NCBI RefSeq assembly: GCF_003334335.1
Contig: NZ_QOWQ01000156.1
Direction: 5' to 3' (one strand)
DNA length: 697 nt
Source of the DNA: Escherichia coli
Lineage (GTDB): Bacteria; Pseudomonadota; Gammaproteobacteria; Enterobacterales; Enterobacteriaceae
Of the stretch, positions 1 to 697 are shown one piece after another (the stretch's first letter is position 1; each line of letters starts with the position of its first letter). Both the position numbers and the translations under genes were made by a program. The notes under the pieces are model-generated. The model searched no databases. It saw only the letters and a program-made list of their open reading frames with translations, and was not told where the DNA came from.

Positions 1-697
1 CTGGACCGGCTGGTACAGCAGGGCGGCTTTGACGGGCGGACGCAACGTTATCATTATGACCTGACCGGAAAACTCACGCAGAGTGAAGATGAGGGGCTTA
101 TCACCCTCTGGCACTACGATGCGTCGGACCGCATCACGCACCGGACGGTGAACGGCGACCCGGCAGAGCAGTGGCAGTATGATGAGCACGGGTGGTTAAC
201 CACCCTCAGCCATACCAGTGAAGGCCACCGCGTGTCGGTCCACTACGGCTATGACGATAAAGGCCGCCTGACCGGCGAACGCCAGACGGTGGAGAACCCG
301 GAGACGGGGGAACTGCTGTGGCACCATGAGACCGGACATGCGTACAACGAACAGGGGCTGGCAAACCGCGTCACGCCGGACAGTCTGCCGCCGGTGGAGT
401 GGCTGACCTACGGCAGCGGCTATCTTGCGGGCATGAAGCTGGGCGGGACGCCGCTGCTGGAGTTCACGCGCGACCGCCTGCACCGTGAGACGGTGCGCAG
501 CTTCGGCAGCATGGCAGGCAGTAATGCCGCATATAAACTGACCAGCACATACACCCCCGCAGGCCAGTTACAGAGCCAGCACCTGAACAGCCTGGTGTAT
601 GACCGTGACTACGGGTGGAATGACAACGGCGACCTGGTGCGCATCAGCGGCCCGCGACAGACGCGGGAATACGGCTACAGCGCCACGGGCAGGCTGG
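1..697 (+). CDS. rhs: Rhs-family YD-repeat core protein, internal fragment (5' and 3' partial; codon phase 0 from nt 1, last complete codon ends at 696)
   Basis: Seen in sequence: frame +1 is open across all 232 codons, while frame +2 hits TGA at nt 59-61. The translation carries repeated YD-repeat motifs: RYHYDLTGKL (aa 16-25), LWHYDASDRI (36-45), WQYDEHGWL (58-66), VHYGYDDKGRL (80-90), LVYDRDYGWNDNGDL (198-212), EYGYSATGRL (223-232). Third codon positions are G/C-biased. Established knowledge: this motif and spacing define the Rhs/YD-repeat shell, and the peptide matches my recollection of the E. coli Rhs core. Paralog (rhsA/B/C/D-like) not resolvable without alignment, so the symbol is generic. 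Confidence 0.93.
   Translation, partial: MDRLVQQGGFDGRTQRYHYDLTGKLTQSEDEGLITLWHYDASDRITHRTVNGDPAEQWQYDEHGWLTTLSHTSEGHRVSVHYGYDDKGRLTGERQTVENPETGELLWHHETGHAYNEQGLANRVTPDSLPPVEWLTYGSGYLAGMKLGGTPLLEFTRDRLHRETVRSFGSMAGSNAAYKLTSTYTPAGQLQSQHLNSLVYDRDYGWNDNGDLVRISGPRQTREYGYSATGRL

Follow-up and report, generated by a model that had tools for sequence, protein, structure and literature searches.

Ten predicted YD-repeat hairpins encoded within an rhsE-type Rhs core gene of Escherichia coli

The window analysed here, a stretch of 697 nucleotides (nt) from Escherichia coli (RefSeq assembly GCF_003334335.1, contig NZ_QOWQ01000156.1), is considered with a probability of about 96% to be an internal segment of an rhsE-type Rhs core gene of E. 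coli, encoding ten consecutive YD-repeat hairpins from the middle of the wall of an Rhs cocoon. The finding belongs to already known biology, as several Rhs cocoons have solved structures, and it has little significance beyond correct annotation. What is gained is a clean ten-hairpin register for the window, the assignment of an apparent linker to two diverged repeats in the predicted structures, and a pointer to an invariant pair of non-canonical hairpins (YGxGH... and FxRDxLHRE) that is common to the Rhs shells of type VI secretion systems (T6SS) and can be examined in existing coordinates. YD repeats in the Rhs proteins of E. coli have been recognised for decades (PMC3150448).

Frame +1 of the window is free of stops over 232 codons, the full 697 nt, and translation of the other five frames gives 2-16 stops each. 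Codons 665-896 of WP_000014742.1, a 1,407 amino acid (aa) E. coli "RHS element core protein" that is taken as the host protein, match the window with 100% identity; at the locus of enterotoxigenic E. coli (ETEC) H10407 (L001) the window corresponds to L001:8001-8697, within the coding sequence (CDS) at 6009-10232. The whole window (nt 1-697, plus strand) is annotated as an internal part of an Rhs core open reading frame (ORF) based on this DNA identity, a match of aa 1-232 to positions 669-899 of the NCBIfam equivalog model RHS_core (NF041261; expectation value (E) 6e-145) and a GC content at third codon positions (GC3) of 79%. The window alone scores 484.7 bits, being a fragment too short for the equivalog cutoff of 2,000 bits; the host CDS scores 2,768.8 bits, with aa 1-1258 lying on positions 1-1261 of the 1,261-position model. 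In Pfam scans the N-terminus of the host protein contains a weak PAAR-like region and DUF6531, and RHS repeats span aa 320-900 with nine PF05593 matches at E < 1e-3; the TIGR01643 score is 158.8 bits. The core-end domain follows (PF03527 at aa 1154-1190 and TIGR03696 at aa 1181-1258), with the motif DPIGL...DPMGL at aa 1232-1258 matching the DPxG...PxxxxDPxGL description of the core end; directly after this motif lies a variable C-terminal tip of 149 aa containing DUF6973. All testable defining features of the E. coli Rhs core family (NF041261) are present in the host protein.

A sequence-only reading of the window had quoted eight repeat segments, all of which are found in frame +1, correctly read and correctly placed. 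Six of these were listed as clean units; three fit the pattern [YW]-x-YD-x(2)-G-x-L strictly (YHYDLTGKL at aa 17-25, WQYDEHGWL at aa 58-66 and YGYDDKGRL at aa 82-90), but the other three require a relaxed pattern, namely WHYDASDRI at aa 37-45 (G to D and L to I), YGWNDNGDL at aa 204-212 (YD to WN) and YGYSATGRL at aa 224-232 (YD to YS). The strict pattern is observed three times against a mean of 0.001 and a maximum of 1 in 20,000 residue shuffles, and the relaxed pattern six times against a mean of 0.017 and a maximum of 2 in as many shuffles; neither has a match in the other five frames of the window. Chance is excluded as the source of the YD-type motifs in frame +1. A repeat-profile scan of the translation, proposed beforehand as a check, gives matches to RHS and YD-repeat models: Pfam RHS_repeat (PF05593) at aa 60-94 (E 1.8e-4), aa 19-52 (1.4e-3) and aa 206-232 (0.014), TIGR01643 YD_repeat_2x at aa 19-58 (22.7 bits; cutoff 15.8 bits), and NF041261 across aa 1-232. 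A hidden Markov model (HMM) iterated on the host protein's own repeats finds the six clean units again. No tandem repeat is present in the DNA of the window according to Tandem Repeats Finder, and a search for DNA repeats returns no more than two weak inverted repeats and four direct matches, each of them short and in two copies. The periodicity exists only at the protein level, as the trace of an ancient repeat that can be seen in the protein alone.

Neither Pfam, TIGR01643 nor the host-trained HMM finds a unit between aa 92 and aa 199 of the window, and it had been stated correctly that aa 143-197 (nt 427-591) contains no clean YD unit; the segment was suggested to be a linker or a diverged repeat. 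A non-repeat linker, or a domain inserted between two blocks of YD repeats, would account for this silence and for a nine-residue loop at aa 169-177 that is modelled with low confidence and is rich in indels. The units of the middle region emerged only through the alignment of diverse relatives, a held-out unit HMM and structure prediction. The alignment (A1) contains the window and 25 collinear segments from relatives clustered at 50% identity, which are 29-84% identical to the window; P0003, P0007 and P0010 were left out as chimeric or fragmentary, and P0113, P0122 and P0133 as non-collinear generic YD proteins. When a unit HMM trained on the six clean positions only is used to score the held-out positions in the 26 sequences, it matches at aa 115 in 16/26, at aa 157 in 20/26 (weakly), at aa 184 in 24/26 and at aa 137 in 0/26, and only three matches fall off register. 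The segment at aa 182-190 (STYTPAGQL), overlooked by the sequence-only reading, is a degenerate unit that appears as YDxxGRL in relatives. Both AlphaFold models described below contain strands at aa 141-147, 150-157, 163-168, 178-184 and 190-195 with tight turns at aa 158-162 and 185-189; furthermore, aa 143-197 aligns unbroken to shell residues of Tse5 from Pseudomonas aeruginosa, and no other part of the window is as well conserved. A linker or inserted domain is therefore regarded as very improbable. The segment is instead modelled as a pair of diverged units, FTRDRLHRE and STYTPAGQL, with a single short loop of variable sequence, so that of the two suggestions the diverged repeat is retained and the linker is abandoned.

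The ten hairpins form one unbroken run with anchors at aa 19, 39, 60, 84, 115, 137, 157, 184, 206 and 226; the measured spacings (20, 21, 24, 31, 22, 20, 27, 22 and 20 residues) roughly agree with the 20-25 residues proposed earlier but are slightly wider. Each anchor ends a predicted strand before a tight turn, which is five residues long except for a three-residue GSG at aa 138-140. All features are on the plus strand, and strands and turns are those of the models. The first 12 nt (1-12) encode LDRL, with which an earlier YD unit ends (host aa 655-670, GSHSDFSYDALDRLVQ); the YD of that unit falls just before the window begins, and the unit is found with the self-trained repeat HMM. Three units are canonical and match strictly: unit 1 (nt 49-75, aa 17-25; 16.1 bits with the unit HMM) has a strand at aa 14-19, a turn at 20-24 and a strand at 25-30; unit 3 (nt 172-198, aa 58-66; RHS_repeat E 1.8e-4) has a strand at 53-60, a turn at 61-65 and a strand at 66-73; and unit 4 (nt 244-270, aa 82-90; 13.6 bits) has a strand at 76-84, a turn at 85-89 and a strand at 90-98. 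Unit 2 (nt 109-135, aa 37-45; 8.6 bits) is a relaxed match with a strand at 33-39, a turn at 40-44 and a strand at 45-50. Unit 5, HAYNEQGLA (nt 337-363, aa 113-121), is degenerate with YN in place of YD and lies inside an earlier-described weak unit at nt 319-360; its strands are at 105-115 and 121-126 with a turn at 116-120, its family consensus is HxYDxLG, and G119 is invariant in A1.

Unit 6, LTYGSGYLA (nt 403-429, aa 135-143), is non-canonical and is equivalent to the second of the weak units, nt 400-426; it has a strand at aa 132-137, a turn at 138-140 and a strand at 141-147. Both weak units (aa 107-120 and aa 134-142) correspond to real hairpins in the AlphaFold models, as had been supposed; unit 6 is rejected as a profile-detectable YD repeat (0/26) and is accepted solely as a predicted structural hairpin with a three-residue turn. 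Unit 7, FTRDRLHRE (nt 463-489, aa 155-163), keeps the register of YxYDxxGxL with Y replaced by R, G by H and L by E, and has a strand at aa 150-157, a turn at 158-162 and a strand at 163-168. The variable surface loop GSMAGSNAA (nt 505-531, aa 169-177) is the sole element of the window predicted not to belong to a hairpin; the ten-residue block covering it averages a predicted local distance difference test (pLDDT) value of 69 in the fragment model, and in the shell model the values for aa 171-173 drop under 50. Unit 8, STYTPAGQL (nt 544-570, aa 182-190), is degenerate with YT in place of YD and scores only 2.0 bits in the window itself; Y184 and L190 are at least 90% conserved in A1, and the strands at 178-184 and 190-195 flank a turn at 185-189. 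Unit 9 (nt 610-636, aa 204-212; RHS_repeat at aa 206-232, E 0.014) is a relaxed match with a strand at 201-206, a turn at 207-211 and a strand at 212-216. Unit 10 (nt 670-696, aa 224-232; relaxed match, 12.3 bits) has, in the shell model, a strand at 221-226, a turn and a strand at 232-239; the window ends inside this unit.

Structure prediction and superposition on solved shells, the second check proposed beforehand, show regular hairpins for nt 427-591 and a shell that matches solved Rhs shells. The AlphaFold2 model of the fragment, based on A1, has a mean pLDDT of 92.3 and is all-beta, with 20 strands forming ten hairpins; a model of the whole shell (host aa 300-1258, 959 aa) has a pLDDT of 86.1 and a predicted template modelling score (pTM) of 0.79. 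Strand boundaries in the window region agree between the two models, therefore the register is no artefact of folding the fragment alone. In Foldseek searches the fragment finds Tse5 with E 3.5e-13 and a query template modelling score (TMq) of 0.67, with Rhs shells ranking best, followed by the BC components of Tc toxins and by teneurins; the whole shell finds Tse5 (8cp6_B) with E 1.2e-72 and a TMq of 0.81 over 972 columns, and Tse15 (8uxt), RhsA (7q97) and VgrG-Rhs (8qja) with TMq values of 0.77-0.78. The host protein is predicted to form a closed beta-cocoon from a spiralling antiparallel sheet of YD hairpins; the repeat-model matches, the confident all-beta models and the superposition on the Tse5 shell all support the earlier suggestion of an Rhs/teneurin-type shell. 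An older view of Rhs and WapA proteins would place the YD repeats outside any container wall, as exposed ligand- or carbohydrate-binding repeats of a cell-surface adhesin, and early literature did describe Rhs proteins as exported cell-surface proteins of unknown function (PMC3150448). This view is hardly credible for the host protein, as the predicted shell closes to a cocoon that superposes on solved toxin-containing Rhs cages; an autoprotease motif and a variable toxin tip are likewise present in the host, whose gene is linked to VgrG.

In a container wall of this kind each unit would have a strand that ends with an aromatic or bulky residue, D-x-x-G-x or a variant of it would make the tight turn, and the next strand would pair back; successive hairpins would then stack sideways into a single antiparallel sheet that spirals to a closed shell. 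The YD motif has been described as the transition from a strand to a sharp turn (bioRxiv 10.1101/2024.02.26.582050), and the Rhs core as a container of sequentially interacting hairpins around a toxin (10.1101/2024.02.26.582050; PMC8765631). The barrel of Tse5 consists of 40 hairpins with the consensus YDxxGRLV and the turn DxxGR; the tyrosine points to the cavity, H, R, W or F often stands in its place, and N, S, L or Q is often found instead of D and R (PMC10684867). Judged by sequence, the substitutions in units 2, 5, 7, 8, 9 and 10 are exactly those commonly described for Tse5. By homology, the shell may enclose the variable C-terminal toxin, 149 aa in length, located after the autoprotease motif DPxG...DPxGL. 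The whole protein may sit on the VgrG spike encoded next to it and be shot by the T6SS into nearby bacteria, with the YdcD-family protein encoded downstream as the putative immunity factor.

Four points weigh against reading the window as part of the wall of a functional Rhs cocoon. Encapsulation, autocleavage and T6SS dependence are extrapolated from the characterised homologues Tse5, RhsA, Rhs1 and Tse15, and for autoproteolysis, toxin encapsulation and T6SS-dependent killing the host carries the corresponding sequence motifs only. The structural evidence for the window is a prediction and not a solved structure. Units 6 and 7 have no significant sequence-profile match, and their status as repeats would follow from register and predicted structure; the median score of unit 7 with the unit HMM is -1.8 bits at a permissive threshold. 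Lastly, some strains, including K-12, have a truncated pseudogene at the same locus.

Units 6 and 7 are the least canonical of the ten hairpins and also the most conserved, with mean column identities of 0.81 and 0.83 in the 26 sequences of A1, compared with about 0.5-0.65 for the other units. Y137, G138, G140, R157, D158 and E163 are invariant in all 26 sequences, at identities down to 29%, and L160, H161 and R162 of unit 7 are at least 90% conserved; the family consensus is WLTYGSGHLHG for unit 6 and FERDxLHRE for unit 7. The same signature is found in Tse5 (WLTYGPGHL...FERDALHRE), Tse15 (LVYGSGHI...FQRDDLHRE), the VgrG-Rhs protein of Advenella (WLRYGAGHV...FERDNSHRA) and RhsA of Pseudomonas protegens (LYYGSGHL...FQRDRLHRE). 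The main texts of the Tse5 and RhsA structure papers do not mention these residues by number, with the caveat that the numbering was counted by hand and an offset could hide a mention. It is tentatively suggested, as a possibility that is unlikely, that the pair forms a specialised site of T6SS Rhs cages, such as a charged cluster contacting the enclosed toxin or plug, or a nucleus for folding of the spiral; alternatively, the two units may simply be a well-packed repeat.

The closest known system is the E. coli RhsE/RHS element core (NF041261), which shares the same DNA and the same chromosomal locus (yncH ... ydcD), occurs in multiple copies per genome, and likewise shows a GC-rich core (63-66%) followed by an AT-rich extension (about 32%), the YD consensus YDxxGRL[I/T] and the PxxxxDPxGL demarcation. 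There is no difference of substance from E. coli RhsE; the gene considered here is an intact, VgrG-linked allele of a gene that is a pseudogene in K-12. The original descriptions of YD repeats in E. coli Rhs proteins date from the 1990s, and the classical Rhs elements of this species are reportedly the work of Hill and colleagues.

Among solved structures the Rhs shell of P. aeruginosa Tse5 (8CP6) is the closest; residues 571-801 of 8cp6_B are collinear with aa 1-232 of the window at about 31% identity, with E 1.6e-23 for the single sequence and 2e-82 for the family profile. Tse5 presents the same series of hairpins, including WLTYGPGHL and FERDALHRE, and the whole shells superpose with a TM-score of 0.81; it differs in species, in the N-terminal region, in the toxin (Tse5-CT is a pore former, whereas the tip of the host contains DUF6973) and in loop lengths, for example at aa 169-177 of the window. 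The same spiral YD beta-cocoon, with TMq values of 0.65-0.78, is seen in RhsA (7Q97, P. protegens), Tse15 (8UXT, Acinetobacter baumannii), VgrG-Rhs (8QJA, Advenella), Rhs1 (7PQ5, Photorhabdus) and RhsP (8H8A, Vibrio), and the signature of units 6 and 7 is aligned in RhsA, Tse15 and the Advenella protein; these proteins differ from the host in sequence (18-28% identity), in their N-terminal loading domains (PAAR, clade domain or VgrG fusion) and in their toxins. The TcB/TcC (BC) shells of Tc toxins and the teneurins share the YD-hairpin architecture and shell topology, with Foldseek E values of 1e-22 to 1e-38 for the whole-shell model, but at 11-16% identity and TMq values of about 0.2-0.6. The Tc shells are split over two proteins, have a beta-propeller gate and dock on TcA, and teneurins are extracellular receptors of animals that align only to profile positions 14-105, leaving the part of the profile with units 6 and 7 unaligned. 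Pfam scans of the host reveal no TcB beta-propeller, TcA-docking or teneurin extracellular domain; the host shares the repeat architecture of the Tc toxin BC and teneurin shells and is no member of those families.

At the ETEC H10407 locus the gene order is yncH, VgrG, Rhs, ydcD and ISAs1/H-repeat transposase genes. Between the end of the upstream VgrG gene (TIGR03361, 624 bits) and the start of Rhs lie 67 nt, and an ORF of the YdcD family follows downstream, overlapping the Rhs stop codon; the linkage to a VgrG spike and to a downstream immunity gene that marks T6SS effectors is found here, with YdcD as the putative immunity gene. YdcD is likely to be the immunity protein, by analogy with characterised effectors. 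The same gene order is that of the rhsE locus of K-12, where rhsE is a 2,049-nt pseudogene without VgrG that keeps nt 196-697 of the window at 100% identity and lacks nt 1-195. The K-12 pseudogene (L002:7891-9939) starts 12 nt upstream of the position equivalent to window nt 196, and the K-12 truncation point therefore lies inside the window (184-196), within YD unit 3.

Truncated cores and orphan fragments are common at Rhs loci (PMC3150448), and together with the K-12 pseudogene this raises the question of whether the window belongs to a truncated core or an orphan fragment that no longer functions, its repeats being relics, and not to a toxin gene that is expressed. The window contains nt 1-195, which are absent from the K-12 remnant, and its source is therefore probably a strain whose rhsE-type gene is intact; its frame is intact over all 232 codons, and many genomes hold the identical sequence within a full-length 1,407-aa gene that has VgrG upstream. 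A remnant is considered improbable and would in any case bear on the state of the gene, not on what the sequence encodes, which is read as the ten-hairpin wall segment.

Sequence resembling the window is matched in 3,864 of 5,426 complete E. coli genomes at a median of five places per genome, and many complete genomes of the species carry an annotated RHS element core gene that matches the window with 100% identity. The multiple places per genome are consistent with the paralogous Rhs cores behind the family name "rearrangement hot spot". Up to nine places occur in a single genome, and plasmids account for 15 places; in most records the best match has an identity of 90-95%.

The GC content of the window is 63.3%, with the GC3 given above for frame +1. 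Across the locus (L001:6001-11000) the GC content is 63-66% in the Rhs core, about 50% in the chromosome on either side and about 32-33% in the extension together with ydcD; this mosaic suggests that the core and the extension are of different origins. The toxin tip, ydcD and the H-repeat region together range from about 32-39% GC, and the sharp compositional mosaic is the classical pattern of Rhs elements. A 95-aa antisense ORF with a GTG start is present on the minus strand at nt 196-483, in a frame with only two stops across the window; as a coding sequence it is set aside, since it most likely arises from the GC-rich codons of frame +1 (GC3 79%).

In the whole-shell model an insertion of about 65 residues at host aa 1076-1141 (L001:9234-9431; model residues 777-842) is helical, with four to five helices located between the last long hairpins and the C-terminal spiral; it is modelled partly with lower confidence. 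In the metagenomic representatives P0003, P0007 and P0010 the segment equivalent to the window is joined to other parts of an Rhs core, and in P0010, for example, the sequence jumps after unit 6 straight to YYDP...DPIGL in the C-terminal region. Such representatives are either Rhs genes that have undergone recombination or deletion, or chimeras that arose when paralogues were assembled together.

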